Source of the DNA: Geobacter metallireducens GS-15
Lineage (GTDB): Bacteria; Desulfobacterota; Desulfuromonadia; Geobacterales; Geobacteraceae
Length of the DNA: 32,000 nucleotides
Reading direction: 5' to 3'
Assembly (NCBI RefSeq): GCF_000012925.1
Contig: NC_007517.1
Location: forward strand, 3,090,001-3,122,000
Shown here: one piece after another, positions 3,085 to 32,000 of the stretch
How the letters are laid out: each line of letters begins with the position of its first letter
Position numbering within the stretch: position 1 is the stretch's first letter
Notes under the pieces: generated by a model
Database searches by the model: none
The model's input: the letters and a program-made list of their open reading frames with translations, nothing else
What the model was told of the DNA's origin: nothing
Position numbers and translations under genes: made by a program

Positions 3085-3104
3085 CGGAAACTATTTAGGA
3101 ACGC

Positions 3105-3968
3105 ATGAACCGACTGATCCTCCACATACTCGCTGTACTGCTCCTCTGGGGCTTCCCGGCTTTCGCCGCGGAAGTCGTGGTGGTGCAGGGCGAGCGCCTG
3201 GCACCCTTCGAGGCCGCATTCCACGGCTTCAAGGACACGGCCGGCGTGCGTTCCGTGGAGCGGTTCGTGCTCTCCGACCTTCGGGGTGCCGACGTGGTCC
3301 GGGCCGTGCGGGAGGCCCGCCCCCGGCTGGTGCTGGCAGTGGGGCGCGACGCCCTGGCGAGGGTGCGGGATATTCGCGAGATTCCGGTGGTCTACGTGAT
3401 GGTGCCCCCCTCCGCAACCGCCGACGCCACGGGACGCAACGTGACCGGCATCGAGATGGACGTGCCGGCGGAGCGCTACCTCTCCCTCTGCGGAAATGGG
3501 CTGGGTGGCAAGCGTGTGGGGATCATCTACAACCCGGCCAAGACCGGTGCGCTGGTGCAGGAGGCCCGCCAGGCGGCGGAGCGGCTCGGCATCACCCTGG
3601 TGGTCCGCAGGGCCGACGACCCCCGCGAGGCGGTCCGTGAGCTTTCCTCCCTCAAGGGGAAGGTGGACACCCTCTGGCTCCTCCCCGACCCGACGGTGGT
3701 GACCCGCGACACCATGGAGTCCTTCGCCCTCTTCTCCCAGCAAAACCGGGTGCCGGTGGTGGCCTTTGCCGCCAAGTACCTGCAGCAGGGGGCCGTTGCC
3801 GCCATCGAGGTGGACCCGGCCGACATGGGACGGCAGGCCGGCCGCATGGCCCGCCGCATCCTGGACGGCGCTTCGCCCCAAGCGGAAACGCCGGAGCATC
3901 CCGCAAAGACGCGCCTGAAGGTGAACCACTCCGTGGCGCAGCACTTGGGCATCACGTTGAAGGAGTAA
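3105..3968 (+). CDS. Periplasmic ABC-type substrate-binding-like protein (PF04392/ABC_sub_bind type)
   Basis: Signal peptide MNRLILHILAVLLLWGFPAFA/AE. The sequence pattern (VGIIYNP..., VDTLWLLPD, VPVVAF) is typical of this family as I remember it. It starts 20 nt after the TBDR stop. Confidence 0.7.
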   Translation: MNRLILHILAVLLLWGFPAFAAEVVVVQGERLAPFEAAFHGFKDTAGVRSVERFVLSDLRGADVVRAVREARPRLVLAVGRDALARVRDIREIPVVYVMVPPSATADATGRNVTGIEMDVPAERYLSLCGNGLGGKRVGIIYNPAKTGALVQEARQAAERLGITLVVRRADDPREAVRELSSLKGKVDTLWLLPDPTVVTRDTMESFALFSQQNRVPVVAFAAKYLQQGAVAAIEVDPADMGRQAGRMARRILDGASPQAETPEHPAKTRLKVNHSVAQHLGITLKE

Positions 3969-3974
3969 CCCCCC

Positions 3975-5546: not shown

Positions 5547-5692
5547 ATAACACGGAGAAACGGAGAGCACGGAGAAGCCCATACCCTGTAGTTTTTGTTC
5601 AGCAATCAGAAGACACCATCAACCAAGTTGATTGTGACTGACATACCCGATTTTGCTCCGTGTCCTCCGTCTCTCCGTGTTATATTTTTTTT
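5547..5692. repeat. ~137-bp inverted-repeat element with triple-heptad arms, followed by T8
   Basis: The left arm at 5547-5574 is ATAACACGGAGAAACGGAGAGCACGGAG, which contains 3x ACGGAGA. The right arm at 5656-5683 is CTCCGTGTCCTCCGTCTCTCCGTGTTAT. Its reverse complement matches the left arm at 25/28 positions. The run TTTTTTTT at 5685-5692 follows. Confidence 0.8.
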
Positions 5693-5746
5693 GAATTATT
5701 TCCTCTTTACGACAACTATTCCATCCCTTGCAATCGTGAGGTTCCC

Positions 5747-17222: not shown

Positions 17223-19069
17223 GCCGGGTCGGCGACGTTCGGCGGGACAGGGGGTGTTTCGCTGCCAAGGGTGAATGAGAAGCAGGCGCCTTCCCCGGGC
17301 CTTCCCTCGGCCCGGATGGTACCGCCGTGGCGATGGATGACCCGTTGCACCGTTGTCAGCCCGATGCCGATCCCCTCGAACTCTTCGGCGGAGTGGAGCC
17401 GCTGGAAGGCGCCGAAGAGCTTCCCCACGTACCGCATGTCGAACCCGGCGCCGTTATCGCGGATGAAATACACCGTCTCGCCGTTTGCCTCGGCGGTGCC
17501 GAACTCGATCCGCGCATCCTCCTTGTTGGCGGTGTACTTCCAGGAATTGTGGAGGAGGTTGGTCATGACCACCCCCATCAGCACGGGATCGGCATGCACC
17601 CGGACCCCTTCGGTGATCCTGAAGGCCACGCTGCGGGCAGGTTCGGACAGAGCGAGATCCTCGGCCACCTTGCGTACCATCCGCGACAGGTCGAGGGAAA
17701 CGCGCCTCAGGGGCTCCCGTGACAGCCGCGACAGGTTCAGCAGCGCGTCTATCAGCTGCTCCATCTTGGCGGTGGCCGCTCTGATCCGCTCCAGGTAACC
17801 GTGGGCCTCGTCGTTGATCTCCCGGCAGTAATCTTCCACGAGCAGGGCGCTGTATCCCTCGATATGACGCAACGGAGCCCGCAGGTCATGGGACACCGAA
17901 TAGCAGAAGCTCTCCAGCTCCCGGTTGCTGGCCTCCAGTTGGGCCGTCCGCTCATGGACCCGCCGCTCCAGTTCGGTGTTGAGCCGGCGGATCTCCTCCT
18001 CGCTCCGCAACCGCTGGATGGCAAGGGCCAAAAACTCCGACATCCGGCAGATGGCGTCGAGGTCCGGGTCCGTGTAATCGCGCGGAGGATTGGCGAGGGA
18101 AATCTGGGCGACGAGGGCGTGGCCGAAAACCACCGGCACCGACAGGAACCGGAGAACGGCAATATGCCCCTGCGGCACCCCCTTGGCGGCCCCATGGCGG
18201 GAGGGGTTGTTGGTGTAGAACGGCTTACGCGTGTTGAGGGAGTGCCCCCACAGTCCCCCATAGTGCCCGGCGGCATCGGGTACAAATGCCAGGTTCCTCC
18301 CCGGGGAGGCAAAACAGTCGATTCCCTCCATCATGTCGGTGGTGAGGTTCAACTGCATGACGCCGGTTTCCGACTCGACGATTCCCACGTAACCGTGGTC
18401 GCTCCCGGTCAACTCCTTGGCCTTTTCCAGGACGATGAGCGCTATGTCCCTGAACGTGGCGTAGGTGGAGATGAGGGGGGGATAGAGTTCGGCCAGGGCG
18501 GCATCCACCCGCGCCTGCCACAGCAGCTTCTCGGTCCGCTCCGCCACTTTCCGCTCCAGGTCCTTGTAGAGGAGACTGTTGCGGAGCACGAGGGACAGAA
18601 CGCCCGAAAGCCGTGCCAGGGAGGCGTAGATGGTGTCGAGGCCGGTGCTCTCCATGACCCCCAGCAGCATGAGGACGCCGACCCTTTCACCGCCGGCATC
18701 GAGGGGGAAGACCAGGCTGTCGGATTCTTCCGCCGGGGCGAGAAGCTCCTTCGCCTCCGGCGGGCTCTCCCCGGACGACCAGACAACGGGCCCATGAACG
18801 GCATGGCTTCGTGCGGCAAGACGCCGCAAGGATTCCGGGCGCTCCCCCCCTTGCGCCCGGCCGGGGCAGACACTCACCAGTTCATACGCCGGCCGCTCGG
18901 AAGACGGGACGCACTGCATCAGCGCCACAATCCGCACCCCGATCAGCTCGCGGATCTGCGCCGTGATGTAGCTGCCGCACTCCCCCGGGTTCTCCGCCAG
19001 CCGCAGGACATTCTCCAGCAACTCCACAAAGAGGAAATTCAACGACTTGCGATAGGAGTCGTCACTCAT
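17219..19069 (-). CDS. Cytoplasmic sensor histidine kinase with tandem GAF-like N-terminal domains
   Basis: H-box [20 protein letters not shown]-box MTNLLHNSWKYT, and G-boxes DNGAGFD and GIGIGLTTV. The N-terminal ~380 aa has no TM segment and is GAF-like. I chose the ATG at 19069 (MSDDSYRK...), which overlaps the DUF1638 stop by 8 nt. Confidence 0.85.
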   Translation of the reverse strand: MSDDSYRKSLNFLFVELLENVLRLAENPGECGSYITAQIRELIGVRIVALMQCVPSSERPAYELVSVCPGRAQGGERPESLRRLAARSHAVHGPVVWSSGESPPEAKELLAPAEESDSLVFPLDAGGERVGVLMLLGVMESTGLDTIYASLARLSGVLSLVLRNSLLYKDLERKVAERTEKLLWQARVDAALAELYPPLISTYATFRDIALIVLEKAKELTGSDHGYVGIVESETGVMQLNLTTDMMEGIDCFASPGRNLAFVPDAAGHYGGLWGHSLNTRKPFYTNNPSRHGAAKGVPQGHIAVLRFLSVPVVFGHALVAQISLANPPRDYTDPDLDAICRMSEFLALAIQRLRSEEEIRRLNTELERRVHERTAQLEASNRELESFCYSVSHDLRAPLRHIEGYSALLVEDYCREINDEAHGYLERIRAATAKMEQLIDALLNLSRLSREPLRRVSLDLSRMVRKVAEDLALSEPARSVAFRITEGVRVHADPVLMGVVMTNLLHNSWKYTANKEDARIEFGTAEANGETVYFIRDNGAGFDMRYVGKLFGAFQRLHSAEEFEGIGIGLTTVQRVIHRHGGTIRAEGRPGEGACFSFTLGSETPPVPPNVADPA

Positions 19070-19643
19070 TGAAACCCTCCAGCGCCTTCCTGACGGCATC
19101 GGCCAGGCGATCAGGCGCAACCGCCTTAACCTCCACCGGCAATCCGACGTAACACCCTATCTCCGCAAGGGTTTCCGCAGGCACCGGCACCACTCCCGTA
19201 TCGAGATAGAAGATGCGGCGATGCATCTCCTGCATGAAGAGCCGCGCGCTTTCAGGGGTAACGAAACCAAGCCGCTCCCGGAATACCTCCCGCCAGCGCG
19301 CGGTCCATTCGGGAAGCAGGAAAAAGGCCCCTTCTCTCCGCAACCGCCGGTATTCCTCCCTCCCCAGCACCAGCTCGCAGCAGTTGTGCCCCTTCACCCG
19401 GCAGGCCCCCTCGCGGGACGCAAGCAGGTCCATCCGGGCTTGGCAGTCGCCGAAGAGCAGCACGATGCGCTGTCCGGCGAGGGATTGAACAAGGGCCGTC
19501 AGGGCCTGCTCCAGACGCTCCGGCTCCATGTGGAGCATGGAATCCAGAAACCTCACGGGCCAGGGGAATTTCCCCGCCCGCCCGAGGGCCGCCAGCTCAT
19601 CACGGAAGATGCCGCAGCTGACGACCAGCACATCGGCCGGCAT
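19062..19643 (-). CDS. DUF1638 domain protein
   Basis: VLVVSCGIFRDEL...LDSMLHM.PE.L...LLFGDC...NCCELVLG matches the pattern I associate with DUF1638, which is commonly next to corrinoid methyltransferase genes. The ATG at 19643 has a GAGGGG SD; the track start at 19658 is a GTG. Confidence 0.7.
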   Translation of the reverse strand: MPADVLVVSCGIFRDELAALGRAGKFPWPVRFLDSMLHMEPERLEQALTALVQSLAGQRIVLLFGDCQARMDLLASREGACRVKGHNCCELVLGREEYRRLRREGAFFLLPEWTARWREVFRERLGFVTPESARLFMQEMHRRIFYLDTGVVPVPAETLAEIGCYVGLPVEVKAVAPDRLADAVRKALEGFNE

Positions 19644-19654
19644 GGTTTCGCCCC

Positions 19655-20677
19655 TCACCGCCCGCCTCCGTGCCCCTCGACCGCGGCCCGCACGGCAAGC
19701 AACGTTTCCAGCGGCGTATCGAGGGGAACGTCCGCGGATGACGACGCCAGGACAAAGTGGGGGTCATCCCGGCGGTCGGCAAGGATCGCGGCGGCCCTCG
19801 CCCCTGCCTGTTCCGGGGTAAGCCGGTTCAGGACCGGCCCGTTCAGGTTGCCGAGGATCAGCTTCTCCTCTCCCACGATGGAGCGGGCCGCGGCGAAGCT
19901 GTCGCCGGGGCCGATGACGAACCCCGCCACATTGGGAAGATCCTTCACAAGCGGCAAGAACGGCATGGCCGGGTTGCCCCCGTGATGGAGGATGATGGGG
20001 ATGGGGGTTCGGGCGAAGGCCTGCGCCAGCGGCGGGACGATGGAACGGGAAATGACCTCGGGAGTAACGAGCGTCGGATTTGCCAGCATGAGGGGAATGG
20101 CGATGCAGGCGGCACCTGCCGCGGCCAGTGCCCCGGCCATGGCGGCAAAGTGCTCCGTGGCGGCTGCCAGCACCGTTTCCGCCAGCGCCGGCTCGAAGAG
20201 GAGTGTTTCAAGCCATCCGTCGAGCCCCATGAGCATGGCCGGCAGATCCACCGGCGCGGTGAGGACCCCGGCCAGGGGAACGCTCCCGCAAAAATGGTCC
20301 GCCAGCCGCCGGACGCTCTCGCAAAGGTAGGCAAGGCCGGGACAGGTATCAATGGCGGGAGGGGACAGGGATGCGGCGTCGCGGGGCGCGCGGAAAGGAT
20401 GCCTGCGGACCATGGGGGGACCGTCGGGATGGTAGCGAAGTTCGGCGCCGTATGCCTCGGCCTCCAGGGCCAGGGCGAAGGGTGCGAAGATGATGTCGGG
20501 GGAAACGAGCTCGGCAACCCGCACCTGCCCTTGGGCGTAGAGGGCCGGATCGGCATAGTAGCTGGCCAGGGGGGCGTTGATCAACCGGGCGCCGTAGAGG
20601 CTCAGGGTCAGGGCAAAAGGTGGCCGGTCAGGCTTTTCTCCGGTGAAGACGGCCATGACCCTCTCGGCGGCGGTCAT
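19655..20677 (-). CDS. Uroporphyrinogen-decarboxylase-superfamily protein, MtaA/MT2-like, lacking the Zn-ligand cysteines
   Basis: A 340-aa product starts at MTAAERVMAVFTGEKPDRPPF. The ATG at 20677-20675 overlaps the corrinoid gene's TGA (ATGA). The track's 511-aa version over-extends into the upstream gene. ILHHGGN sits where MT2 enzymes have H-x-C. Confidence 0.75.
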   Translation of the reverse strand: MTAAERVMAVFTGEKPDRPPFALTLSLYGARLINAPLASYYADPALYAQGQVRVAELVSPDIIFAPFALALEAEAYGAELRYHPDGPPMVRRHPFRAPRDAASLSPPAIDTCPGLAYLCESVRRLADHFCGSVPLAGVLTAPVDLPAMLMGLDGWLETLLFEPALAETVLAAATEHFAAMAGALAAAGAACIAIPLMLANPTLVTPEVISRSIVPPLAQAFARTPIPIILHHGGNPAMPFLPLVKDLPNVAGFVIGPGDSFAAARSIVGEEKLILGNLNGPVLNRLTPEQAGARAAAILADRRDDPHFVLASSSADVPLDTPLETLLAVRAAVEGHGGGR

Positions 20678-21384
20678 TGCTCCCCCCCGGCGTCCAGCGA
20701 GCGTTCCCAGAGGGATTTGAAGAGAACAGGCGCATCCATGGCGCTGCCGGCCGTGCCGTCTCCCCCCACCTCCGCCACCAGCTCGGGACGGACCTTGAAA
20801 ACGGCCCCCCCCACCGCAAGCATGATCCTGCCGGAGAGTCCCCGTCGGTCGAGCTCGTCGCGCACCCCGCGGATTCCCCGGGCAGTGACGAACATCATGG
20901 CCGAAACCCCGATAACCCGCGCGCCCGTTTCCACGGCCCGGTCGACGAATTCGGCGGGGCTCACGTCGTTTCCCATGTCGATCACGGCCCATCCGGCTGC
21001 CCGGAGGAAGGTGCCGACCATGCCGCGGCCAAGGGAATGGTAATCGTCCTCGATGTTGCCGATCACCACCGGCCCCTTGACCTCGCCGAACACCCCCTTC
21101 GGGGCGGCGGCCAGGGCCTTGTTCAGGATATCCTCGGCCACCTTCCCGGCCACAAAGCCCTGGGCCAGGGAGATAGCCTCCCGCTCCCACCGGTCGCCCA
21201 CCGTCCGAAGAACCGGCTCAAGGATCTCCGCAATGGCGTCCCCATAGCCGTGAACGGCCGCCCACTGGTCCACGAGACGGCTTGCCCCGTCCCGGTCGGC
21301 ATCGTTGATACGCCGCAACACTTCAGCGACAAGCTTCTGAAGCGTCGTCCCCTCTCCGGTCATATCAGGCATCGGCGCCGCCAT
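20674..21384 (-). CDS. Corrinoid (cobalamin B12-binding domain) protein, MtaC/MtbC-like
   Basis: An N-terminal helical cap domain is followed by a Rossmann-like domain. The B12-binding signature is GNIEDDYHSLGRGMV (DxHxxG), then VIGVSAM and GG. The start could be the ATG at 21384 or 21399. I prefer 21384 given the sigma54 promoter geometry and a GGGGTGA SD. Confidence 0.8.
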   Translation of the reverse strand: MAAPMPDMTGEGTTLQKLVAEVLRRINDADRDGASRLVDQWAAVHGYGDAIAEILEPVLRTVGDRWEREAISLAQGFVAGKVAEDILNKALAAAPKGVFGEVKGPVVIGNIEDDYHSLGRGMVGTFLRAAGWAVIDMGNDVSPAEFVDRAVETGARVIGVSAMMFVTARGIRGVRDELDRRGLSGRIMLAVGGAVFKVRPELVAEVGGDGTAGSAMDAPVLFKSLWERSLDAGGEQ

Positions 21385-21417
21385 GTTCACCCCGTTCATC
21401 GTGGACTACACTAAGCG

Positions 21418-21438: not shown

Positions 21439-21455
21439 GTTGCAATTATTGCAAC
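21439..21455. promoter_or_regulatory. Perfect 17-bp palindrome centred on the E2 stop codon
   Basis: GTTGCAAT-T-ATTGCAAC on the forward strand. The E2 TAA (21446-21448) is at its centre. It lies 5 nt upstream of the sigma54 -24 element. Confidence 0.5.
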
Positions 21456-22741
21456 AACATCAGGACAGGTTTTTCAACGATGCGCCGGAACTCCCCGAGG
21501 AACCGGGCCGCGTAGGCGCCGTCAACGATCCGGTGGTCACAGGAGAGGGTCACCCGCATGGTCTTCGCCGCCACCACCCGGCCGTCCCGGACCACCGGGC
21601 GGTCAGCCACGTTCCCCACGGCCAGGATTGCGGCCTGGGGCGGGAAGATCACCGCTGCGAACTCATCGATGCCGAACATCCCCAGGTTCGAGATGCTGAA
21701 CGTACCGCCGGATATCTCCTCCTGGCTGATCCTGCCGCTGCGGGCCCGGTCCGCGAGGCGCACCGTCTCCAGGGCAATCTCCTTCAGAGCGAGCCCCTGG
21801 CACCCCTTCACCACCGGCACCAGGAGGCCGTCGTCCACCGCCACGGCGATCCCGATGTTCACCTCGCAGTGGGTGACGATCCGGTCGCCGGCGAAGGATG
21901 CGTTCAGCCTCGGATACTTTGCCAGGGCCATGGCCGCCGCCTTGACCACGAGATCGTTAAAGGTGACCTCGTTCCCGCTCCCCTTCAGCTCCCGGACGAT
22001 CTCAACCCCCTCCTCCATGGCGATCTCCACCGTCTCGTAGAAGTGGGGGATGGTCTGCCACGCCTGGCTGGTGACGCGGGCAATGGCGCCCCGCATCCGC
22101 GACAGGGGTTCGCCCTCTGCACCCTCGCCGGTGGCGACAGCACTCTCCGGTGCTGGCTTCTCCGTCAGGTACCGCTCCAGATCCTCCTGGAGAATCCTCC
22201 CCTCGGGGCCGCTGCCGGTCACGAGGCTTAGGTCGATCCCCCGCTCCCGCGCCATCCGCCTAACCACGGGGGCAGCCCGCTCACCCTCGCCGCGTTCCGC
22301 TTCCGGCGGGGCCGGTGCGGACGCCTTCTCCTCGGGAAGCTCCATGACCCGCTCCGGCACGTCACCCGCCGGAGCGGCAGGGGTTGCTTCCGGCGTCGGC
22401 TGCGGTTCGGCTTTCTGCGGCGACGGCTTCGACTCCTCCGGCGATGGCTTGGGCTCCTCCGGCGATGGCGTCGGCTTCTCCGGAGCGACTGGGGGAATCT
22501 CCCCGCCCGCGCCGATGACGCCGATCACCGTCCCCACGGCCACCAGCTCCCCCGGTTTCACCCGCTGCTCGGCGAGGGTTCCCGAGGCGAACGCCTCCAG
22601 CTCCATGGTGGCCTTGTCGGTCTCCACCTCGGCGATGATCTCGCCCCGCTCCACTCGCTCGCCCACGCTCTTCTTCCAGGAAACGAGCCGGCCTTCGGTC
22701 ATGGTATCCGAGAGTTTGGGCATGGTGATATCGGTTGGCAT
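21446..22741 (-). CDS. Dihydrolipoamide acyltransferase (E2) of a 2-oxoacid dehydrogenase complex
   Basis: Lipoyl domain (MPKLSDTMTEG...VETDKATMELEA), Pro/Glu/Lys linker, PSBD (AAPVVRRMARERGIDL..V.GSGP.GRI) and catalytic domain with CDHRIVDGA. Confidence 0.95.
   Translation of the reverse strand: MPTDITMPKLSDTMTEGRLVSWKKSVGERVERGEIIAEVETDKATMELEAFASGTLAEQRVKPGELVAVGTVIGVIGAGGEIPPVAPEKPTPSPEEPKPSPEESKPSPQKAEPQPTPEATPAAPAGDVPERVMELPEEKASAPAPPEAERGEGERAAPVVRRMARERGIDLSLVTGSGPEGRILQEDLERYLTEKPAPESAVATGEGAEGEPLSRMRGAIARVTSQAWQTIPHFYETVEIAMEEGVEIVRELKGSGNEVTFNDLVVKAAAMALAKYPRLNASFAGDRIVTHCEVNIGIAVAVDDGLLVPVVKGCQGLALKEIALETVRLADRARSGRISQEEISGGTFSISNLGMFGIDEFAAVIFPPQAAILAVGNVADRPVVRDGRVVAAKTMRVTLSCDHRIVDGAYAARFLGEFRRIVEKPVLMLLQ
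22420..22482. repeat. Three imperfect 21-bp tandem repeats inside the E2 linker
   Basis: The units are gcgacggcttcgactcctccg, gcgatggcttgggctcctccg and gcgatggcgtcggcttctccg. They encode the PEE(P/S)KPS-type linker repeats. Confidence 0.8.
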
Positions 22742-22754
22742 CCGTGCCTCCTTG

Positions 22755-23741
22755 TCAGTATTTCTGACTCATTACGTCCCGAACCGCTGCGGCGATGGTC
22801 TCCACCTGCGGGATGCAGAGCTTCTCGATCTTGCGCGAGTAAGGCATGGGGACGTCGAGCCCCGACACCCGCCGCACCGGCGCCAGGAGCCGGTCGAAGC
22901 ACTCCTCGGCGATGATGGAGGCCAGGTGCCCCCCGAGGCCGGCGGCGCGCCAGCACTCCTCCACCACCACGGCCCGGCCGGTCTTCTGCACCGAGGCAAC
23001 AAAGGTCTCCGTGTCCAGGGGCGCCAGGGTCCGCAGGTCCACCACCTCGCAGGAGCTCCCCTCCTTCTCCAGTTCCGCCGCCGCCTGCAGCGCCAGGATG
23101 GTCATGCGCGAATAGGCGACGATGGTCACATCCTTCCCCTCCCGCTTCACCTCGGCCTTCCCCAGGGGGACCAGGAACTCCGGGTCGTCGGGCACCTCCC
23201 CCTTGCTGTTGTAGAGGAGCTCGTGCTCCAGGAACATCACCGGGTTGTTGTCGCGGATGGAGGCCTTCAGGAGCCCCCGGGCGTCGGCAGGCGTCGCCGG
23301 CACCGCCACATGGATGCCGGGGCAGTGCATGAAGTAGGTTTCCAGGCTCTGGGAGTGCTGGGCCCCCAGCTGGCTCCCACCGCCCCCCGGGGCGCGGACC
23401 ACCATGGGGAGATGGGTCTGCCCCCCGAACATGGAGCTGATCTTGGCCATGTGGTTCACGATCTGGTCCATGGCCAGGAGGGCGAAGTTCACCGTCATCA
23501 GTTCCGCCACGGGCCTCAAGCCACCCATGGCCGCCCCGATGGAGACGCCGATGATGGTGTTCTCGGAGATGGGGGTATCCTTCACCCGCTCCTCGCCGAA
23601 CTCGGCCAGAAGCCCCCGGGTCACCTTGAAGGAGCCCTCGTACAGGGCCACGTCCTCCCCCCAGGCAACCACGGACGGGTCGCGCCGCATCTCTTCTTTC
23701 AGGGCCTTGTTCAGGGCATCGCGGTAGGTCATTTCATGCAT
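22755..23741 (-). CDS. 2-oxoacid (pyruvate/acetoin-type) dehydrogenase E1 beta subunit
   Basis: MTYRDALNKALKEEM...V...GEDV..Y.G.FKVT.GL...FG..RV.DTPISE is the typical transketolase-like E1-beta pattern. An AAGGAGG SD precedes the downstream E2. Confidence 0.95.
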   Translation of the reverse strand: MHEMTYRDALNKALKEEMRRDPSVVAWGEDVALYEGSFKVTRGLLAEFGEERVKDTPISENTIIGVSIGAAMGGLRPVAELMTVNFALLAMDQIVNHMAKISSMFGGQTHLPMVVRAPGGGGSQLGAQHSQSLETYFMHCPGIHVAVPATPADARGLLKASIRDNNPVMFLEHELLYNSKGEVPDDPEFLVPLGKAEVKREGKDVTIVAYSRMTILALQAAAELEKEGSSCEVVDLRTLAPLDTETFVASVQKTGRAVVVEECWRAAGLGGHLASIIAEECFDRLLAPVRRVSGLDVPMPYSRKIEKLCIPQVETIAAAVRDVMSQKY

Positions 23742-23773
23742 GGGAAACCTCCGTTACTATAACGGCTGAGAGC

Positions 23774-23792
23774 ACAGCGGGTTCACCGCTGT
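23774..23792. repeat. Hairpin ACAGCGG-gttca-CCGCTGT at the E1-beta-proximal edge of the low-GC cassette
   Basis: A 7-bp stem with a 5-nt loop, read directly. It shares the core AGCGG(G)TTCAC with the palindrome at 24735-24768. Confidence 0.6.
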
Positions 23793-23836
23793 TGCGCTTG
23801 GTTGAATAGTATTCTGCACCTCATCCTGTTCTGCTA

Positions 23837-24328
23837 CTAATCCATAGAAATGAGTTTCAAAGTTCTCTCCGGCAAAGATTTCTGTCTATTTCCCTCTATA
23901 AGCTCTTCAGTGATTGTTAGCATAAGTTGTGTAAACTTGTTCTGACTTATAAGTTTGTCACGAGTATCAGGGCTGTGCCAAGCCTGCTTTAACAACTCTG
24001 TTGCATGATGGTGAATCATAAGTGCTATTGGTTTTGACATGGATGGGAATTGTTCTAATATTTTAGATTTTGTTTCATCAATACTTTGCAAGAACTCGCT
24101 GAACTGTTTTGTTTTGTGTTGCTCTTCTATTTGTACCCGTACTTTATGCTCTTCAAACCTTGTCTGTAATTCCTCTATTTCATGACGCAATTTCACATCA
24201 GCTAAATCTTTGTCTCTCTTGAGCTTGTTCAAGTCGTCATTGTGTTTTTTTTGCCATTCCAGCGATTCACTCTTGATTGTTTCAAGTAAACCCGCTACGA
24301 AACTTCCGAGATCTTGACCTGCTGACAT
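23837..24328 (-). CDS. Hypothetical soluble coiled-coil protein (163 aa), low-GC cassette gene 2
   Basis: ORF with an AGGAGG SD (aggaggtaagtcATG), 3 nt after gene 1's stop. Lys/Glu-rich heptad-like sequence. I recognise no domain. Confidence 0.7.
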   Translation of the reverse strand: MSAGQDLGSFVAGLLETIKSESLEWQKKHNDDLNKLKRDKDLADVKLRHEIEELQTRFEEHKVRVQIEEQHKTKQFSEFLQSIDETKSKILEQFPSMSKPIALMIHHHATELLKQAWHSPDTRDKLISQNKFTQLMLTITEELIEGNRQKSLPERTLKLISMD

Positions 24329-24331
24329 GAC

Positions 24332-24703
24332 TTACCTCCTAAATTTATTTAGATTCTCATATACGTTCTTAACATTCGAATTTAGTAACACATTGTAAAG
24401 GGAATACAATTTTTGCGCTTTCACTTCATCTACGTATGACTGTACTAAGTTCTCCAAGTCATCAAAAAAGCGCGGAGGAATATCCCTCTGGAATTTGTAC
24501 AATAAAGGCTTAACATATGAGGCTAGTTCATTCATGTTAGCCCGTTGTATCTCTGTTACCTTACCGTCACGTCTATCTTCTTCACGTGATGCGCACTCTT
24601 GGCTGAATTTTTCAAATTTTTGTTTTTGACGTTCCAAGCGAGTCTCTTTCATATAATACCAAACCGCCCAGATGATAATTCCTAAGATGACAATCTCTAA
24701 CAT
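24332..24703 (-). CDS. Hypothetical single-pass membrane protein (123 aa), low-GC cassette gene 1
   Basis: The N-terminal TM helix MLEIVILGIIIWAVWYYM is followed by KETRLERQKQK (positive-inside) and a charged helical cytoplasmic domain. GGAGA SD. I recognise no domain. Confidence 0.7.
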   Translation of the reverse strand: MLEIVILGIIIWAVWYYMKETRLERQKQKFEKFSQECASREEDRRDGKVTEIQRANMNELASYVKPLLYKFQRDIPPRFFDDLENLVQSYVDEVKAQKLYSLYNVLLNSNVKNVYENLNKFRR

Positions 24704-24734
24704 TTCTGTTCATTCTCCAGTTCAACTCGTGATT

Positions 24735-24768
24735 GAGCGGTTCACGCGCGCACGCGCGTGAACCGCTC
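24735..24768. repeat. Perfect 16+16 bp GC-rich palindrome at the distal edge of the low-GC cassette
   Basis: GAGCGGTTCACGCGCG-CA-CGCGCGTGAACCGCTC. There is no adjacent T-tract on either strand. Confidence 0.85.
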
Positions 24769-24789
24769 ATCCTCCCGAATGGAACATTT

Positions 24790-25074
24790 CTACCTGCTCA
24801 TCCCCCACAGCCGAACAAGCATGTCTGTTTTTCGTGAGCCCACACCGTGCCATAGCGAAACAAGTCCGATGTACTCTTCAGTCACTTCGTAGATGATGCA
24901 GTATTTCACCGGGCCGGAATCGACATACAACTCTTTCAGCACCACCTGTTGGCCGGCAAGCAGATAGGGCGCATCGACACCGGCAAAGTTGTTTGCGCAG
25001 AGGAGCTTTTTCCAGCGAACGCTTAAGCGGACGTTTTGCCATTCCGCAGCTCTCTTCTTAAAGTATCGAAGAAT
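24790..25074 (-). pseudogene. ParE/RelE-family toxin-like ORF with no canonical start codon
   Basis: The open frame runs from TGA-TGA-ATT to TAG. It translates as ILRYFKKRAAEWQNVRLSVRWKKLLCANNFAGVDAPYLLAGQQVVLKELYVDSGPVKYCIIYEVTEEYIGLVSLWHGVGSRKTDML... The tail has a ParE-like hydrophobic-strand...H-G...R pattern. No ATG, GTG or TTG occurs before residue ~44. It overlaps the antitoxin 3' end by 52 nt. Confidence 0.45.
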
Positions 25075-25298
25075 TCATCATTTTCCGAAACGACCGTGCC
25101 CAACCCGGAACGAAGTTCGTACCAGCCCCGCTCAACCAAATCGAAGAACTCCTTCTGCTCATCGGCGTGCCGCACGTACATACGCAACGAGTCCCGGAGC
25201 ACGTCCTGCTCGTTGCGTCCTTCCCGTTGAGCAATCCGCTTCAGGTTCATGCTGTCGGTTTCATCAAGCCTGAGCCCCATTTGTCTGCTGCTTCCCAT
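25023..25298 (-). CDS. Ribbon-helix-helix antitoxin, ParD-like
   Basis: The RHH region is MGLRLDETDSMNLKRIAQREGRNEQDVLRDSLRMYV. The C-terminal helical region (ERGWYELRSG...FFDTLRRELR) resembles ParD-type antitoxins. I chose the ATG at 25298, which has a GAAGGTG SD; the track start is 25340. Confidence 0.65.
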   Translation of the reverse strand: MGSSRQMGLRLDETDSMNLKRIAQREGRNEQDVLRDSLRMYVRHADEQKEFFDLVERGWYELRSGLGTVVSENDEFFDTLRRELRNGKTSA

Positions 25299-25336
25299 AC
25301 ATTTCACCTTCCCGGTATCATTAATACCGATACACA

Positions 25337-25780
25337 TCACCGCATACCAGCCGACAAGATATCTATCTCCACTATCCAGAGGGCCAACGTCGGACGATAG
25401 TCAACCGTATGTCGCTGTTTCGCTGTTCGACAGGACAGAGCTAATCGGCGCGAAGTCTTTTTTCCGCGACCGGTCGAGCGCGTTGTCAGGCATGTCTCCC
25501 ATGTTTCGTGGATAGCTTCACGTACCACATCCGTCAGCCTCAATCCTTGAGCAAACTGTCTCAAAGCGTCGTTCATCAGCGTTTGATAGTTACCGCCGAT
25601 TATTTCAGCCCGAGCTTTGAATGTTGCCAGGACGTCGTTGTCAACACGCATCGTTATGCGGGATTTGCCGCCGGTCTCGGCCTGAAATTTCGCCAGGACA
25701 GGCGTTTCACTGACCGGTTCTGCGTCTGTAAAATCAAGGTCTTTGTATTTGTCGTACATTTTGTCAGAACTGACTTTCAT
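25337..25780 (-). CDS. BrnA-type (CopG/RHH) antitoxin with an atypically long C-terminal tail
   Basis: DLDFTDAEPV...PVLAKFQAETGGKSRITMRVDNDVLATFKARAEIIGGNYQTLMNDALRQF is the characteristic BrnA pattern. The ORF then runs ~55 aa further (147 aa in total). Confidence 0.7.
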   Translation of the reverse strand: MKVSSDKMYDKYKDLDFTDAEPVSETPVLAKFQAETGGKSRITMRVDNDVLATFKARAEIIGGNYQTLMNDALRQFAQGLRLTDVVREAIHETWETCLTTRSTGRGKKTSRRLALSCRTAKQRHTVDYRPTLALWIVEIDILSAGMR

Positions 25781-25847
25781 AGCGTCTCCGTTGCGGCTCG
25801 TTGGCCTTCCAGGCTGAGATCAGCCGTATCGTTTCCTCTCTATGACT
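25764..25847 (-). pseudogene. BrnT (DUF497) toxin C-terminal stub
   Basis: The frame reads SHREETIRLISAWKANEPQRRRYESQF*. This matches the BrnT C-terminal pattern ...IR(I/L)ISAR.A...ER..Y. The stop overlaps the brnA start by 17 nt, as in intact brnTA pairs. The upstream ~65 aa of a normal BrnT is absent, because the 168-aa gene ends at 25850. Confidence 0.5.
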
Positions 25848-25849
25848 GT

Positions 25850-26356
25850 TCAGATCTTGCGGCTGTCGTAAGCCCAGTGCAACAATGCCTGGCGCTGTTT
25901 TCTCCGGCAATCCAGGTCTCCCGGAACACAATTCAACCTCAACTGCGCACTATGCCTTCTCATGGCTTTCCACCGGCCGATCTGCCGGGCATCATCCGCA
26001 CATCTCCGCCCCATGAAGTAGCGGCAATACCACTGGAACCACCCCCGGGGGTCTTCGTGATAGATCCACCCCCTGGCCCGCCAGTAGGACAACGGCTTGG
26101 AGGCGTTGACGCCGAAATGGTTCAATTCAGGAACGTGGCGTTCGTGACAGAGCTTGGCATTGGTAAACCACTCTTCAGGAAACTCGTCGATACAGTCTGT
26201 CATGTACTTCCCGCCGAAAACGCCCAGCTCAAGCATCTCCCTTGGCGTCAGTTCGGGCTTGAATTCCGGATGGAAATTCATGCCCACCGGTTCTGACAGC
26301 GTATAGATGTAGTTCCTCTGCATGAGGTCGTCCACGACAACGTATATTTGATCCAT
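25850..26356 (-). CDS. Conserved-looking hypothetical protein (168 aa), family not recognised
   Basis: The ORF has distinctive Trp/Arg-rich motifs (DPRGWFQWYCRYFMGRRCADDARQIGRW). It starts at the ATG at 26356; the track's GTG at 26383 overlaps the upstream stop. Confidence 0.65.
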   Translation of the reverse strand: MDQIYVVVDDLMQRNYIYTLSEPVGMNFHPEFKPELTPREMLELGVFGGKYMTDCIDEFPEEWFTNAKLCHERHVPELNHFGVNASKPLSYWRARGWIYHEDPRGWFQWYCRYFMGRRCADDARQIGRWKAMRRHSAQLRLNCVPGDLDCRRKQRQALLHWAYDSRKI

Positions 26357-26379
26357 GGTCAGTCTCTTTCTGCCACAGT

Positions 26380-27351
26380 TCACACATGGTTGCGCAGCAT
26401 CAGCTCGGCCGGATGAGGCGACAGGTAGTACTGCTGCTGCAGGTAGCTCTGACCGTACTTGCCGACGTAATGCTTCAACAGGGTAAGCGGAACAATGAGG
26501 GGGACCAGCCGGTCGTGATATTCCTTGATGACCCCGAGTAGTTCTTCCTTTTCAGCAGGGCTCAGATCCCGCTTGAAATAGCCCATGATATGCGTCAGCA
26601 CGTTGGTGTTCTTCTTGACCGTGGCATGCAGGGCAAGGGCCTTCATGAAGAGCGCTTCGTAGCTTTGGGCCAGCTCGGGCCAAGACATCCCTTTGCCGTG
26701 CGCCACCAGGCTTCCCATTTCCCGGTAGATGCTGGTGCTGTGGGCCAGGATGAGCAGCTTGTGACGGGCATGGAAAGTCACCAGGTGGCCCAGGTCGGGA
26801 CTGTCCAGCAGGAAATCCTTCCAGCGGCGGTAGCAGAAGATCCGCTCGATGAAATTTTCCCGGATGGCCGCGTCATTGAGCCTCCCCTCTTCCTCTGCCG
26901 GAAGAAGAGGGAAATGCTTGACCACTGCTGCGGCAAACAGGCCGCTGCCGCTCCTGGTCGGCATCCCCTCGTTGTGAACCTTGACCCGAAACAGGCCTGA
27001 ACTGGGGGAATCTTTCTTGAAGATGAAACCGCACAACTCTTCATCCGCCAATTCCGTAACCTTTTGCTTACAGAAGGCGCGCATCTGTTCGGTCTTGTCG
27101 ATGCGGGTCTTGTTCGTCACGAGCCGGGGGTGCTCGGGGTCTCCCTCAAGGCGCATTGCCTCGCGAGGGACCGGCATGCCGCAGCCGACCTCCGGGCAGA
27201 CCGGCACGAAGGTGAAGAACTTGCCCAGTACGTCGGTTATGTAGTGATCGTGCTTGTGGCCGCCGTCATAGCGCACCTTCTCTCCCAGGAGGCAGGAACT
27301 GACGCCAACCTTTATCGGTCTGTTCCAGTTGACCGCCTCAGGCATAAACAT
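26380..27351 (-). CDS. DUF523 (TudS-like 2-thiouracil desulfurase family) fused to DUF1722 (YbgA-like)
   Basis: The N-terminus VGVSSCLLGEKVRYDGGHK...PVCPEVGCGMPVPRE...SPSSG is the DUF523 Cys pattern. The C-terminal half (FHARHKLLILAHS...Y..LG...) is YbgA-like. The ATG at 27351 or 27345 overlaps the E1-alpha stop by 14 or 8 nt. Confidence 0.8.
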   Translation of the reverse strand: MFMPEAVNWNRPIKVGVSSCLLGEKVRYDGGHKHDHYITDVLGKFFTFVPVCPEVGCGMPVPREAMRLEGDPEHPRLVTNKTRIDKTEQMRAFCKQKVTELADEELCGFIFKKDSPSSGLFRVKVHNEGMPTRSGSGLFAAAVVKHFPLLPAEEEGRLNDAAIRENFIERIFCYRRWKDFLLDSPDLGHLVTFHARHKLLILAHSTSIYREMGSLVAHGKGMSWPELAQSYEALFMKALALHATVKKNTNVLTHIMGYFKRDLSPAEKEELLGVIKEYHDRLVPLIVPLTLLKHYVGKYGQSYLQQQYYLSPHPAELMLRNHV

Positions 27352-28315
27352 CTTCCCACACCTCACTATCCTCGGGCCACGGCGAATCCTCGGCAAACTT
27401 CACCGCATCGGCCACCGTCACCAGGGCCTGCTGTTTGATCCCCTCCAGCTGGGCCTCGGTGGCTATCTCTTCCTCCACCAGCCGGTTCGCGAAGGCCGGG
27501 ATGGGGTCGCGGCTCTTCCACAGCTCCACCTCGGCAAGGCTGCGGTATTTGCCCGGATCGGACATGGAGTGCCCCCGGAACCGGTAGGTGATCGCCTCGA
27601 TGAGGAAGGGGCGGTTCTGCTCCCGCACCCACTCGGCCGCCCATTTGACCGCCTCGTACACCGCGATCACGTCCATGCCGTGAACCCGCTCCGACGGGAT
27701 GTCGTAGCCGCAGGTCCGCCGGTGGATGTCAGGGAGTGCCGATGCCCTCTCCACGGAGGTGCCGATGCCGTAACTGTTGTTCTCGCAGATGAAGAGGACC
27801 GGCAGTTCCCAGAGCCGGGCCCAGTTGAGTGATTCGTGGAACGTTCCCTGGTTCGCGGCGCCGTCGCCGAAGAAACAGGCGACGATCCGTCCCTCCTTCC
27901 GGAATTTGGCGGCAAAGGCGAGCCCCACGGCGATGGGGAACTGGCCGCCGACAATGGCGTATCCCCCCATGAAGGAGAGATTCGGGTCGAAGAGGTGCAT
28001 GGAGCCCCCCTTCCCCTTGCAGATGCCGGTCCGCTTGCCGAAGAGCTCGGCCATGACCCGCCGCGGCTCGGCCCCCCGGACGATGGCCTGGGCGTGTTCC
28101 CGGTAGGCGGAGAGGATGTAGTCGTCCCGGTGGAGGCCGGCGGTGGCCCCCACGGCCACGGCCTCCTGGCCGCTGTAGAGGTGGAGGAAGCCGGTGATGT
28201 GCCCCTTGGTGTACTGTTCGGCGCACGACTCCTCGAACTCGCGGGAAAGGACCATCTGTTCGTACATCCTGATAAGTTCGGCGTCGGGGAGAAGGGCGCG
28301 GAGTTTCGATTCCAT
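27338..28315 (-). CDS. 2-oxoacid (pyruvate/acetoin-type) dehydrogenase E1 alpha subunit (TPP-binding)
   Basis: MESKLRALLPDAELIRMYEQMVLSREFEE...GFLHLYSGQEAV...GGSMH...GDGA.NQG...E.LN.A.LW.LPV.F.CENN.Y is the E1-alpha TPP motif pattern. The ATG at 28315 has a GAGG SD. Confidence 0.95.
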   Translation of the reverse strand: MESKLRALLPDAELIRMYEQMVLSREFEESCAEQYTKGHITGFLHLYSGQEAVAVGATAGLHRDDYILSAYREHAQAIVRGAEPRRVMAELFGKRTGICKGKGGSMHLFDPNLSFMGGYAIVGGQFPIAVGLAFAAKFRKEGRIVACFFGDGAANQGTFHESLNWARLWELPVLFICENNSYGIGTSVERASALPDIHRRTCGYDIPSERVHGMDVIAVYEAVKWAAEWVREQNRPFLIEAITYRFRGHSMSDPGKYRSLAEVELWKSRDPIPAFANRLVEEEIATEAQLEGIKQQALVTVADAVKFAEDSPWPEDSEVWEDVYA

Positions 28316-31328: not shown

Positions 31329-32000
31329 TCACCCCTCCGTACCGCCTTTTTTCACAAAGTTCAGGGTCCCCCCGGCCAGAAGCTCCTGCCGCTGCCGGTC
31401 TGAGACCTCCAGAATGGTGACAATCTCCCGTCCGTCCACCCGCACCGGTATCTCTGCGGCGCCGGAGGCCACGAGCCGGCGCACATCGGGGAACACGAGG
31501 CGGTCCCCCTGCTTCACCAGGTCGTAGTCGGCGGGATTTCTGAACGTGAGGGGGAGGATGCCGAAGTTCACCAGGTTCGCCTTGTGGATCCGGGCGAAGC
31601 TCTTGACGATCTTGGCCCGGATGCCGAGATAGCGCGGCGCCAGGGCCGCATGCTCCCGGCTCGACCCCTGGCCGTAGTTCTCCCCGCCGATGACGACGCC
31701 GTTCCCCTTCTCCTTGGCCCGCTTGTGGAAATCGGGGTCCAGATGCTCGAAGACGAACTGGCTGATGGCCGGGATGTTGCTCCGGTAGGGGAGCACCTTA
31801 TTCCCCGCAGGCATGATGGTGTCGGTGGAGATATTGTCCCCCACGGTGAGGATGACCTCCGCCTCCAAGGTCTCGGGGAGGGGATCGTAGTCGGGGAACG
31901 GGATGATGTTGGGGCCGGTGACGATCTCCACCCGCTTCGCCTCCTCGGGGGGGAGGGGGAAGATGATGCTGGAGTCGTCCAGGATGTAGTTCTCAGGGTT
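31329..32000 (-). CDS. Aconitate hydratase family protein, C-terminal swivel domain (5' end beyond window)
   Basis: GDNISTDTI.PAG, GGENYGQGSSREHAA..P..LG..A...KSFARIH..NL.N.G..PL is the aconitase domain-4 pattern. The frame stays open upstream of the listed GTG (31931) to the window end (…NPENYILDDSSIIFPLPPEEAKR). Confidence 0.85.
   Translation of the reverse strand, partial: NPENYILDDSSIIFPLPPEEAKRVEIVTGPNIIPFPDYDPLPETLEAEVILTVGDNISTDTIMPAGNKVLPYRSNIPAISQFVFEHLDPDFHKRAKEKGNGVVIGGENYGQGSSREHAALAPRYLGIRAKIVKSFARIHKANLVNFGILPLTFRNPADYDLVKQGDRLVFPDVRRLVASGAAEIPVRVDGREIVTILEVSDRQRQELLAGGTLNFVKKGGTEG

Follow-up and report, generated by a model that had tools for sequence, protein, structure and literature searches.

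How did the two E1 genes of the pyruvate dehydrogenase (PDH) complex of Geobacter metallireducens GS-15 come to lie 3,596 nucleotides (nt) apart, and what are the dissimilar small genes that now stand between them? This is the question raised by the locus analyzed here, a stretch of 32,000 nt of contig NC_007517.1 (positions 3,090,001 to 3,122,000, hereafter the window, whose own numbering is used throughout), in which pdhA (E1-alpha), the intervening genes, pdhB (E1-beta) and the gene for the E2 dihydrolipoamide acetyltransferase follow one another from about Gmet_2760 to about Gmet_2752, all on the minus strand. A sequence-only reading of the window had proposed that a mosaic insert of about 3.6 kb, co-oriented with the operon, parts the two E1 genes at 23742-27337, and had suggested alignment against related genomes as a check. 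That alignment bears out both the insert and its orientation, and we hold with good confidence that the 3.6 kb is best explained as a genuine, lineage-specific insertion at the junction of pdhA and pdhB, made in more than one event. Our literature search found no paper on the split operon and none citing the locus tags Gmet_2752-2760.

The junction of pdhA and pdhB across the Geobacteraceae

The pdhA-pdhB-E2 genes are the operon of the PDH complex, as seen from equivalog-level matches of both E1 genes and from synteny in 78 loci. Specifically, pdhA scores 447 bits against TIGR03182 (cut-off 393.85) and pdhB 436 bits against NF006667 (cut-off 321), the E2 protein matches the PDH acetyltransferase family TIGR01349 with E = 8e-109, under the equivalog cut-off, and an E2 gene is present 3' of E1-beta in all related loci. 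In Geobacter hydrogenophilus (locus L001), the closest species, the flanks of the insert are 96-97% identical in amino acids (aa), with 97% for pdhA and 96% for pdhB, and ~90% identical in nt. Since the aa identity exceeds the nt identity, both E1 genes, which are intact in GS-15, are under purifying selection.

A scan with E1-beta, using one genome per species, gave 80 Geobacteraceae loci, 78 of which allowed both genes to be located. In 58 of the 78 the two genes overlap by 8 nt (ATGYCTGA; ...TATGTCTGAAATG...), and in the other 20 they are separated by 18-5,828 nt, with a new Shine-Dalgarno sequence before pdhB in every gap-bearing locus. Gene-sized cargo occupies the junction in five loci besides the window, namely L001 (3,252 nt), L003 (952 nt, with an Ivy-like secreted protein), L035 (1,790 nt, with an Asp-Al_Ex/TrkA_C transporter), L067 (5,828 nt, with TrmO, TPR, DUF169 and other genes on both strands) and L059 (470 nt). 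The junction between pdhB and E2, which served as the control, has gaps of -16 to 299 nt and holds no gene in any locus, so that gene-sized cargo is specific to the alpha/beta junction. When relatives are ordered by E1-beta similarity, the gap-bearing loci include some closer to GS-15 than an uncultured Geobacter metagenome-assembled genome (MAG; L002, 92% E1-beta identity) whose junction is compact, like that of 57 other loci. In the remaining two of the 80 loci no pdhA lies within 10 kb upstream of pdhB. These are Geobacter sp. UBA9976 (L065) and Geomonas silvestris (L077), where the genes ahead of pdhB are unrelated and in part on the opposite strand, and pdhB has a new Shine-Dalgarno sequence; in these lineages pdhA may have moved elsewhere, or the disruption of the junction may go further still. 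The pdhA/pdhB junction is thus a true hotspot of gene insertion, though of a rather ordinary kind, that stands out mainly by its location in a core metabolic operon. What is uncommon is that it lies between subunit genes that are normally translationally coupled, and that the same junction has been filled repeatedly by dissimilar elements.

The edges of the gap are themselves informative. The left junction motif TGAGGCGGT (TGA-GGCGGT) is common to the window and L003, and L001 has TGAGGCGAT (TGA-GGCGAT); the right junction motif, CGGAGGTTTCCC-ATG, is found in the window, in L001 (identical) and in L003; and both motifs occur in diverged form in the MAG locus L020. The E1-beta identity to the window is 88% for L003 and 86% for L020. 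Moreover, the TTATAGTAACGGAGG of the spacer remnant in the window resembles the L020 spacer TTGATAGAAACGGAGA, and because of this resemblance the TTATAGTAA-CGGAGG that follows the final G of the attC-like site described below looks like native junction DNA. The shared motifs suggest that the overlap was opened once in an ancestor and then filled repeatedly. The 166-nt spacer of L020 (9834-10001) also holds a 35-codon open reading frame (ORF), MKAKEFYRKFDEGEDIP..., the start of which resembles by eye the N-termini of CopG/BrnA-type antitoxins; it has no match in Pfam, and may be the remnant of a toxin-antitoxin module.

The comparison with G. hydrogenophilus divides the insert in two. In a blastn alignment of the window with L001, homology is confined to 32000-25846 and 23753-21452. 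Within the insert, 27337-25846 is 91% identical in nt; the shared block ends 4 nt past the stop of a gene for a 168-aa protein and resumes at 23753, 12 nt before the pdhB ATG, and between the same breakpoints L001 has 1.68 kb of unrelated DNA with an NmrA/epimerase-like gene and a 293-aa ORF on the opposite strand. The older part, 27337-25846, therefore predates the species split, and 25845-23754 is a replaceable slot. The first gene of the older part, a DUF523-DUF1722 fusion (DUF523 being the 2-thiouracil desulfurase family), overlaps the pdhA stop, as had been noted from the sequence alone, and does so by 14 nt; its product is 96% identical in aa to that of L001 6785-7723, a copy with its own start 31 nt past the pdhA stop. 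The 168-aa protein that follows is 92% identical in aa to its L001 counterpart and has no match in Pfam, NCBIfam, PHROG or PADLOC. It has at least 8,000 homologues, with 119 non-self sequences among the matches listed at 73-86% identity. Many Cys, Trp and Arg residues of the family are invariant, including four Cys, and the core DPRGWFQWYCRY..GRRC.DD.RQI.RW is nearly so. An AlphaFold2 (AF2) prediction from 20 sequences gave an unusable model (pLDDT 54.7). Homologues of this gene stand alone in three unrelated neighbourhoods in other Geobacterales genera, so that only in the lineage of GS-15 and G. hydrogenophilus is it paired with DUF523-DUF1722.

The slot of GS-15 is made up of three units, a BrnT toxin remnant with the antitoxin BrnA, a ParD/ParE module, and a low-GC gene pair. 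The stepwise fall in GC content that had been judged by eye is confirmed by a computed profile, with 0.63-0.70 in the flanks, ~0.53-0.61 at 27300-25750, ~0.51-0.54 (about 0.52) at 25750-24700 and ~0.36-0.39 (about 0.37) at 24700-23800. The sequence-only reading took the steps as a sign of layered, nested acquisitions. The layering holds, given the partial sharing with L001, the GC steps and the separate occurrence of ParDE and the low-GC pair elsewhere, but the layers lie side by side and not one within another. As that reading also had it, there is no integrase or transposase; domain and tRNA searches found neither of these, nor any tRNA, within the 32-kb window, and a repeat search found no terminal repeats of the insert, which has the marks neither of an integrase- or tRNA-associated island nor of a transposon.

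The insert may also bear on how the operon is expressed. No convincing minus-strand terminator was found in it (terminator-like sites, all weak, number 3 vs 6.4 expected), and the sole minus-strand promoter-like match in a consensus scan is weak (9/12 positions, 24699-24672) and overlaps the start of Gmet_2755. Since the cargo is co-oriented and lacks a convincing terminator, it is most likely transcribed by read-through from the pdhA promoter. E1-beta retains its own Shine-Dalgarno sequence, as first read, a GGAGG 8 nt 5' of the pdhB start. Expression of pdhB and E2 in GS-15 may depend on read-through of 3.6 kb of cargo, and an effect of the insert on read-through or on subunit stoichiometry is plausible.

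Toxin-antitoxin remnants and a low-GC pair in the slot

The order and identities of the intervening genes given by the sequence-only reading stand, with two qualifications, both of which concern toxins. What it called a BrnT stub plus BrnA is clear for BrnA and weaker for BrnT. Of the two families that define a BrnTA system (PF04365 toxin and PF14384 antitoxin), the antitoxin is matched with E = 8e-14, and its domain (aa 15-77, with a match to the PHROG 4692 antitoxin at E = 5e-7) is followed by a 70-aa tail that reads through non-coding spacer. The toxin is represented by only ~26 residues, ending ...EETIRLISAWKANEPQRRRYESQF before the stop, which lie directly upstream of BrnA and overlap it; they have no Pfam match, and the stretch ETIRLISAWKANEPQRRRYE aligns weakly (E = 0.27) with DVIRIISARKADRKERNRYE, the C-terminus of the toxin in PDB 7vd7. 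The ParE-like ORF, in turn, is not start-less as had been thought. It has an ATG at 25042 and intact codons 1-11, after which a deletion of 94 nt takes away about codons 12-42 and throws the rest out of frame.

This deletion was located with the aid of a homologous module in which the toxin is complete. Over 25360-24724 the ParDE module is 86-87% identical in nt to one between nuoG and nuoH in the MAG CAZBEB01 (L109), and it is 75-79% identical to a copy in Trichloromonas acetexigens (L110), between recG and a GTPase gene; 26 more copies were found in metagenomes. ParDE is thus, by its distribution, an independent mobile unit. The L109 module (3939-4668 of CAZBEB010000010.1) has full-length ParD and ParE genes and the hairpin discussed below, co-oriented with nuoG and nuoH, and is a second case of this module inside a core operon; the MAG itself has a compact PDH junction. 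The L109 toxin (115 aa, 90% identical to the window remnant) passes PF05016 with 24.0 bits (cut-off 23), and in tblastn its aa 1-11 match the window at 100% in one frame and its aa 43-115 at 90% in another. Through this homologue the module has the make-up of a type II toxin-antitoxin (TA) system, a PF05016 toxin overlapping an upstream ribbon-helix-helix (RHH) antitoxin, the latter having weak Arc/RHH matches in PHROG and no Pfam match. The ~95-nt toxin segment is present in most other ParDE copies, including 19 of the 26 from metagenomes. One copy, L128 (Ga0172380_10007010, 2999-3554), lacks this segment, the toxin N-terminus and the promoter region; it may share a similar toxin-inactivating deletion, or have gained one independently. 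Inactivation of the toxin first, leaving an orphan antitoxin, is a common fate of TA modules, and the gene of BrnA and Gmet_2756 are such orphans in GS-15. ParD together with the ParE remnant gave no tblastn match in 72,556 plasmids, and the ParE remnant none in a PDB sequence search; in Pfam, NCBIfam, PHROG and PADLOC the BrnT stub, the ParE remnant and the low-GC pair have sub-threshold matches at best.

Both ends of the ParDE module carry distinctive sequences. Upstream of the antitoxin, relatives have a promoter TTGCCA-N17-TATAAT, which in the window is weaker (TTGTCG-N17-TGTATC) and stands at about 25355-25320, and there is an operator-like palindrome, GGTAT...ATACC. A TTGAAT at the left end was considered as a cassette boundary and rejected, as conservation continues upstream of it in many copies and the region reads as a sigma-70 promoter. 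The 3' element consists of AAATGTTCCATTYGGG, a hairpin and AATNACGAGTTG; the hairpin is a perfect 17-bp palindrome (24734-24769, 100% complementary) with a DNA fold z of -5.8, and it is retained in 6 relatives, where 2 of the stem pairs show compensatory changes. This element is Gmet_R2003, one of four GS-15 copies of the "predicted short RNAs, group 2" (PMC2700814, Fig. S8, Table S4), at genome positions 3,114,734-3,114,794, and it is the 3' end of the ParDE module rather than a free-standing small RNA. The other three copies, Gmet_R2001, R2002 and R2004, adjoin the hypothetical genes Gmet_0082/0083, Gmet_1003 and Gmet_2967/2968; rather than short RNAs, these too might be the 3' termini of small mobile modules, a possibility open to test. 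The palindrome was also considered as a canonical attC site and rejected, as it has no RYYYAAC R'' box and its outer stem is of the wrong polarity, and the attC models described below missed it both in the window and in 92 kb of related loci.

The last unit before pdhB is the low-GC pair Gmet_2755 and Gmet_2754. At 36.6% and 37.8% GC, respectively, both were listed as probable recent acquisitions (PMC2700814, Table S1); the mean G+C of GS-15 genes implied by Aklujkar 2009 (PMC2700814) is ~59%. Gmet_2755 has a hydrophobic, probably membrane-spanning N-terminus and then a charged helical region, with sub-threshold family matches only. For Gmet_2754, AF2 (pLDDT 78.6) places helices at 3-96, 99-118, 122-144 and 154-161, that is, a predicted all-helical protein with one helix of ~94 residues and three short ones. 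Its homologues form only 32 clusters, in Desulfovibrio spp., Fundidesulfovibrio and one low-GC MAG contig; the spread across phyla is patchy, and the homologues in Desulfovibrio and Fundidesulfovibrio are adapted to 58% GC. In all three contexts examined the homologue is preceded by a partner of 123-145 aa (one partner ORF is cut by a contig end), and since this partner recurs in such scattered contexts, Gmet_2754 and Gmet_2755 behave as a mobile two-gene unit.

How this unit could have moved is suggested by a site at its 3' end. We searched with two covariance models, R1 and R2, trained on genuine attC sites of class-1 cassettes from plasmid records (15 sites for R2). All 11 reference attC sites that were inspected share the architecture R''(7), 5 nt, L''(3), one extrahelical base and stem, then stem, L'(3), 5 or 6 nt and R'(7), and on held-out attC sites R2 scores 32-38 bits with a strong preference for the correct strand. 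With filters off and a search space of 64 kb, the top match of both models in the window is 23757-23807 on the gene strand, at 14.7 bits (E = 0.12) with R1 and 17.8 bits (E = 0.018) with R2, the E-values being rough as they rest on a short calibration; the next best match has 10.5 bits. The site begins 30 nt past the Gmet_2754 stop and reads ATTCAAC-CAAGC-GCA-A-CAGCGG-TGAAC-CCGCTG-TGC-TCTCAGCC-GTTATAG, to be cut in R' as G/TTATAG. It fits the reference design in its R'' (ATTCAAC), its 5-nt spacer and its extrahelical A after 3 nt. An attC-like site thus stands at the 3' end of the ORFs, on the same strand, in a unit without a promoter of its own. A further hairpin, 3' of the BrnA domain at 25425-25491 on the gene strand, ranked third (R1 11.8 bits, E = 0.74; R2 9.4 bits, E = 3.6); it may be a decayed attC and is non-significant alone. 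An Rfam search of the window between 21 and 29 kb gave one sub-threshold chance match only.

The specificity of the match is borne out by other loci. In 1.35 Mb of related and control loci a score of 17.8 bits was reached by two matches, both just upstream of a homologous gene pair (L095), and outside the L095 array no match of 17.8 bits was found in 1.33 Mb of Geobacteraceae loci (default filters) or in 92 kb (filters off). The L095 pair (123 and 162 aa, 66% identical to the window pair) has same-strand attC matches of 20.4 and 18.0 bits upstream and of 12.1 and 11.4 bits downstream (filters off), and the 5' end of its cassette, G/TTAGGGC (GTTAGGGC), is the exact complement of its R'' GCCCTAAC. 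The homologous unit therefore occurs elsewhere as a cassette in an attC array. In the window the 5' end of the unit, G/TTGAAC (24726-24720), pairs at 6 of 7 positions with the R'' ATTCAAC, and homology to the L109 ParDE module ends at GAG/TT, precisely the 5' boundary of the unit. The pattern around the low-GC unit is as would be expected for insertion at G/TT by an integron integrase (IntI). G. metallireducens is reported to have at least two intI genes (PMC2426708), and experiments have demonstrated that cassettes can insert at GWT sites outside integrons and be expressed from promoters close by (Loot et al., bioRxiv 10.1101/2022.09.11.507474). We therefore favor, with moderate confidence, the view that the low-GC unit is an integron gene cassette that was inserted by an integron integrase outside any integron. 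If so, the end of the unit, ...TCTCAGCCG, would join TTGAAC on circularization.

Proposed history and rival explanations

Based on these comparisons we put forward a history of the locus in three steps. In the ancestral state pdhA and pdhB were translationally coupled via the 8-nt overlap ATGYCTGA, as they are in most relatives. In the first step, to which the shared junction sequences point, the overlap would have been opened to a short spacer in the clade of GS-15, with both reading frames kept and with pdhB gaining its own Shine-Dalgarno sequence (TGA-GGCGGT ... CGGAGGTTTCCC-ATG). In the second, which the comparison shows, this spacer became a landing place, receiving DUF523-DUF1722 and the 168-aa gene before the split from G. 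hydrogenophilus, and thereafter a slot content that differs by species. The slot of GS-15 holds two type II TA modules, the toxins of which have since been lost, BrnT by truncation at the breakpoint and ParE by the frameshifting 94-nt deletion, together with the 963-nt low-GC unit. In the third, the low-GC cassette would have been inserted at G/TT at the 3' end of the ParDE module, as an isolated cassette of the SALIN/attG type. We propose that pdhB and E2 are now translated from one long transcript by means of the new Shine-Dalgarno sequence, that the ParD promoter may add some transcription, and that the cargo genes are expressed as passengers. Stabilization of the insert may have been an earlier role of the TA modules. 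New cargo could enter the slot in place of the old in two ways, site-specifically at the hairpin or GTT, or through homologous recombination in the pdh flanks; the latter could exchange cargo between strains because the flanks are conserved core genes.

The part given to an integrase in this history has a rival explanation. It can be argued that the distal cargo, low-GC pair included, came without an integron integrase, by illegitimate recombination or by flank-mediated homologous recombination from another Geobacter, and that the attC-like hairpin is a chance structure or an RNA stem-loop acting as terminator or stabilizer. Several observations weigh on this side. The score of the site is modest, 17.8 bits vs 32-38 bits for held-out attC sites, and its E-values are approximate; its R', GTTATAG, fits only the GTT of GTTRRRY; its 3' spacer is 8 nt long vs 5-6 in the model (2 nt longer), and at 51 nt the whole site is short. 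The 5' boundary is ambiguous, as two copies of the ParDE element in other contexts have TTGAAC or TTGAAA after them too. On its left side the slot breaks off within BrnT and not at a G/TT junction, so that at least one event was illegitimate recombination or deletion. Neither the ParDE hairpin nor that beside BrnA is accepted as a canonical attC, leaving at most one clear cassette and no array, and ParDE moves with its hairpin all the same. The cargo of L001, L003, L035 and L067 stands in both orientations and has no attC matches, and the pdhA and pdhB flanks are ~90% identical between species, which is enough for homologous exchange. Against this, the top attC-model match in 64 kb falls exactly at the expected end of the cassette and on the correct strand, it has the R'', 5-nt, L'', extrahelical base and stem design of 11/11 reference sites, and in L095 a homologous pair is part of a genuine attC array, the ends of its cassette matching perfectly. 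We regard an origin without integrase as unlikely. A bolder idea is that the pdhA/pdhB junction, and perhaps those of nuoG/nuoH and pdhB/E2, are landing pads at which one hairpin- or single-strand-directed recombination system captures class-2 repeats (see below), TA modules and attC cassettes alike, the ParDE 3' hairpin being a non-canonical attC-like site of a Geobacter integron integrase and ParDE a new class of self-promoted mobile TA cassette from which small arrays of cassettes would start within operons; this we consider quite improbable.

Two further accounts fare worse. The 3.6 kb could be one islet gained in a single event through an integrase, transposon or phage, the GC steps being those of a pre-assembled mosaic donor; the genes are indeed contiguous and co-oriented, and an 8-nt ATGNCTGA stands on both sides like a target duplication. 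A duplication of the overlap is, however, needed by any insertion that spares both genes and does not point to a transposase. The failure to find an integrase, transposase, tRNA or terminal repeats argues the same way, both the ParDE module and the low-GC pair are found on their own in other places, and G. hydrogenophilus shares the first 1.5 kb only, with other distal cargo between identical breakpoints, all of which makes a single event very improbable. The sequence-only reading had itself named what would undo it, namely the same gene set conserved in relatives as an ancient, fixed and functional extension of the operon, or E1 genes that belong to different complexes. The aa identities of DUF523-DUF1722 (96%) and the 168-aa protein (92%) between the two species that have them could be read in favor of the former. 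Yet only G. hydrogenophilus shares even the first 1.5 kb of the insert, the homologues of the 168-aa gene are solitary in unrelated contexts, both toxin genes have decayed and the last two genes have ~37% GC vs a genome gene mean of ~59%; and the 58 relatives with overlapping E1 genes have the same E2 gene next, which leaves either version of this account hardly credible.

The locus in GS-15 hence combines known phenomena, a transfer hotspot between core genes, decaying chromosomal TA modules and probably an isolated integron cassette. What it offers is a concrete and well-bounded case, in a model electroactive bacterium, of genes that gather and are swapped between subunit genes of central metabolism, neither of which is broken, and the comparison of 78 loci traces the way from a coupling overlap to a spacer with a Shine-Dalgarno sequence and on to a recurrent insertion point.

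Other features of the locus and comparison with known systems

The features discussed are collected in Table 1.

Table 1. Coordinates of the split PDH operon, its cargo and, in the last two rows, repeat-bounded fillers of the same junction in relatives
Feature	Position	Strand	Evidence
pdhA, pyruvate dehydrogenase E1-alpha (~Gmet_2760), intact, left flank of insert	27338-28315	-	PF00676 E = 2e-96
DUF523-DUF1722 fusion gene	26380-27351	-	PF04463 E = 2e-40, PF08349 E = 4e-45
Gene for 168-aa protein without assigned function	25850-26356	-	ORF without family match
Replaceable distal slot	23754-25845	-	no counterpart in G. hydrogenophilus
BrnT toxin remnant	25764-25845	-	~26 C-terminal codons + stop
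BrnA antitoxin ORF	25337-25780	-	PF14384 E = 7.9e-14
Weak attC-like hairpin, 3' of BrnA domain	25425-25491	-	attC covariance models
ParD/ParE module	24724-25360	-	nt identity to modules elsewhere
RHH antitoxin, 100% identical to Gmet_2756	25023-25298	-	UniRef name "Antitoxin, RHH family"
ParE-family toxin pseudogene	24790-25042	-	tblastn with L109 toxin
ParDE 3' element (Gmet_R2003)	24716-24789	-	inverted repeat, conserved flanks
Low-GC two-gene unit, 963 nt, GC ~0.37	23763-24725	-	boundaries read from sequence
Gmet_2755, 123 aa, first gene of low-GC unit	24332-24703	-	ORF
Gmet_2754, 163 aa, second gene of low-GC unit	23837-24328	-	ORF
attC-like site	23757-23807	-	attC covariance models
Ancestral spacer remnant, TTATAGTAA + CGGAGGTTTCCC, bears pdhB Shine-Dalgarno	23742-23762	-	junction comparison
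pdhB, pyruvate dehydrogenase E1-beta (~Gmet_2753), intact, right flank	22755-23741	-	PF02779, PF02780
E2 dihydrolipoamide acetyltransferase, 13 nt 3' of pdhB	21446-22741	-	best NCBIfam = TIGR01349
Triple-repeat junction fillers	L004 9848-10001; L006 9714-10001; L031 9805-10001		
Triple-repeat junction fillers, continued	L050 9712-10001; L058 680-831; L066 9721-10001		

The wider setting is unusual for a PDH operon. On the 3' side of E2, at 19062-21399 on the minus strand, lie genes for a B12-binding corrinoid protein, a URO-D-like methyltransferase and a DUF1638 protein, and the operon is preceded by two CHASE-domain histidine kinases, with a fragment of an aconitase-family gene at 31329-31931.

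Many of the short gaps at the pdhA/pdhB junction in relatives hold elements bounded by inverted triple repeats (GCCACAGAGACACAGAG...CTCTGTGTCTCTGTGGC), and paired-repeat elements were found there in L004, L006, L007, L031, L050, L058 and L066. They correspond to the elements with three TCTCCGTS repeats that the GS-15 genome paper lists as "class 2 paired sites" (PMC2700814). In Table S4 of that paper, one class-2 pair falls between Gmet_2509 and Gmet_2510, the second pair of PDH E1 genes in GS-15 (Aklujkar et al. 2009; PMC2700814). The gaps between pdhB and E2 in L004, L006 and L007 hold such inverted-repeat elements too. A second type of filler, with CAGGATGAACAGGAT-like ends, occurs in L007 and L059, and some fillers enclose tiny Cys-rich, zinc-ribbon-like ORFs (in L006 one of 65 aa with a weak Zn_ribbon_Top1 match). 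These fillers behave like miniature inverted-repeat elements that target junctions within operons. Class-2 elements were considered as carriers of the GS-15 insert and rejected, as none was found within 23742-27337. The window does contain one inverted pair of triple repeats of the CACGGAGA type, at 5551-5565 (+) and 5665-5679 (-), in the gap that separates a gene for a HAMP-HisKA kinase (3975-5546) from one for a molybdopterin oxidoreductase (5660-7762). This pair agrees with the class-2 sites of Aklujkar 2009 and with the MITE-like fillers of PDH junctions in other Geobacteraceae.

Each part of the locus has a counterpart among known systems. The class-2 sites were described as paired binding sites of a global regulator (PMC2700814). 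In other Geobacteraceae they occupy both the pdhA/pdhB and the pdhB/E2 junctions and look like miniature inverted-repeat elements, and they differ from the GS-15 insert in being 100-470 nt long with at most a tiny ORF. The TA units resemble chromosomal ParDE and BrnTA systems in their RHH antitoxin, overlapping ParE-family toxin and autoregulatory-looking promoter and operator, and in the position of BrnA after the putative BrnT remnant. The ParDE module of the window differs from the typical one as a divergent family, with an antitoxin that has no Pfam match and a toxin that barely passes PF05016; a conserved 3' hairpin, that of the Gmet_R2001-R2004 family, travels along with it, and it stands at least twice inside operon junctions, those of pdhA/pdhB and nuoG/nuoH.

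The low-GC unit is closest to isolated cassettes of the SALIN/CALIN and attG types (Loot et al.; Cury et al. IntegronFinder). Like these, it is a promoterless, co-oriented ORF unit with an attC-like 3' hairpin at a G/TT site, with no integrase nearby and a resident promoter that could express it, in a host reported to have intI, and a homologous unit is found in an attC array elsewhere. It differs from them in having one site of suggestive score with a non-canonical R', and neighbor hairpins that the attC model refuses. If the unit was indeed inserted by IntI, it would illustrate in nature the recently described way in which cassettes spread beyond integrons, from a position that an operon promoter can serve. 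Many cassettes that lack an assigned function code for defence systems. We know of no described case of an isolated cassette between two subunit genes of one enzyme.

At the level of the whole junction, the likeness is to hotspots of horizontal transfer between conserved core genes, which Oliveira et al. are said to have described in Nat Commun in 2017. As in these, a single interval between core genes holds different accessory genes in each lineage, of mixed composition and often without a mobility gene, and turnover by homologous recombination through the flanks is plausible. The pdhA/pdhB junction differs from such hotspots in that it lies within an operon, between translationally coupled subunit genes, and insertions there must therefore keep both reading frames and supply a new ribosome-binding site.

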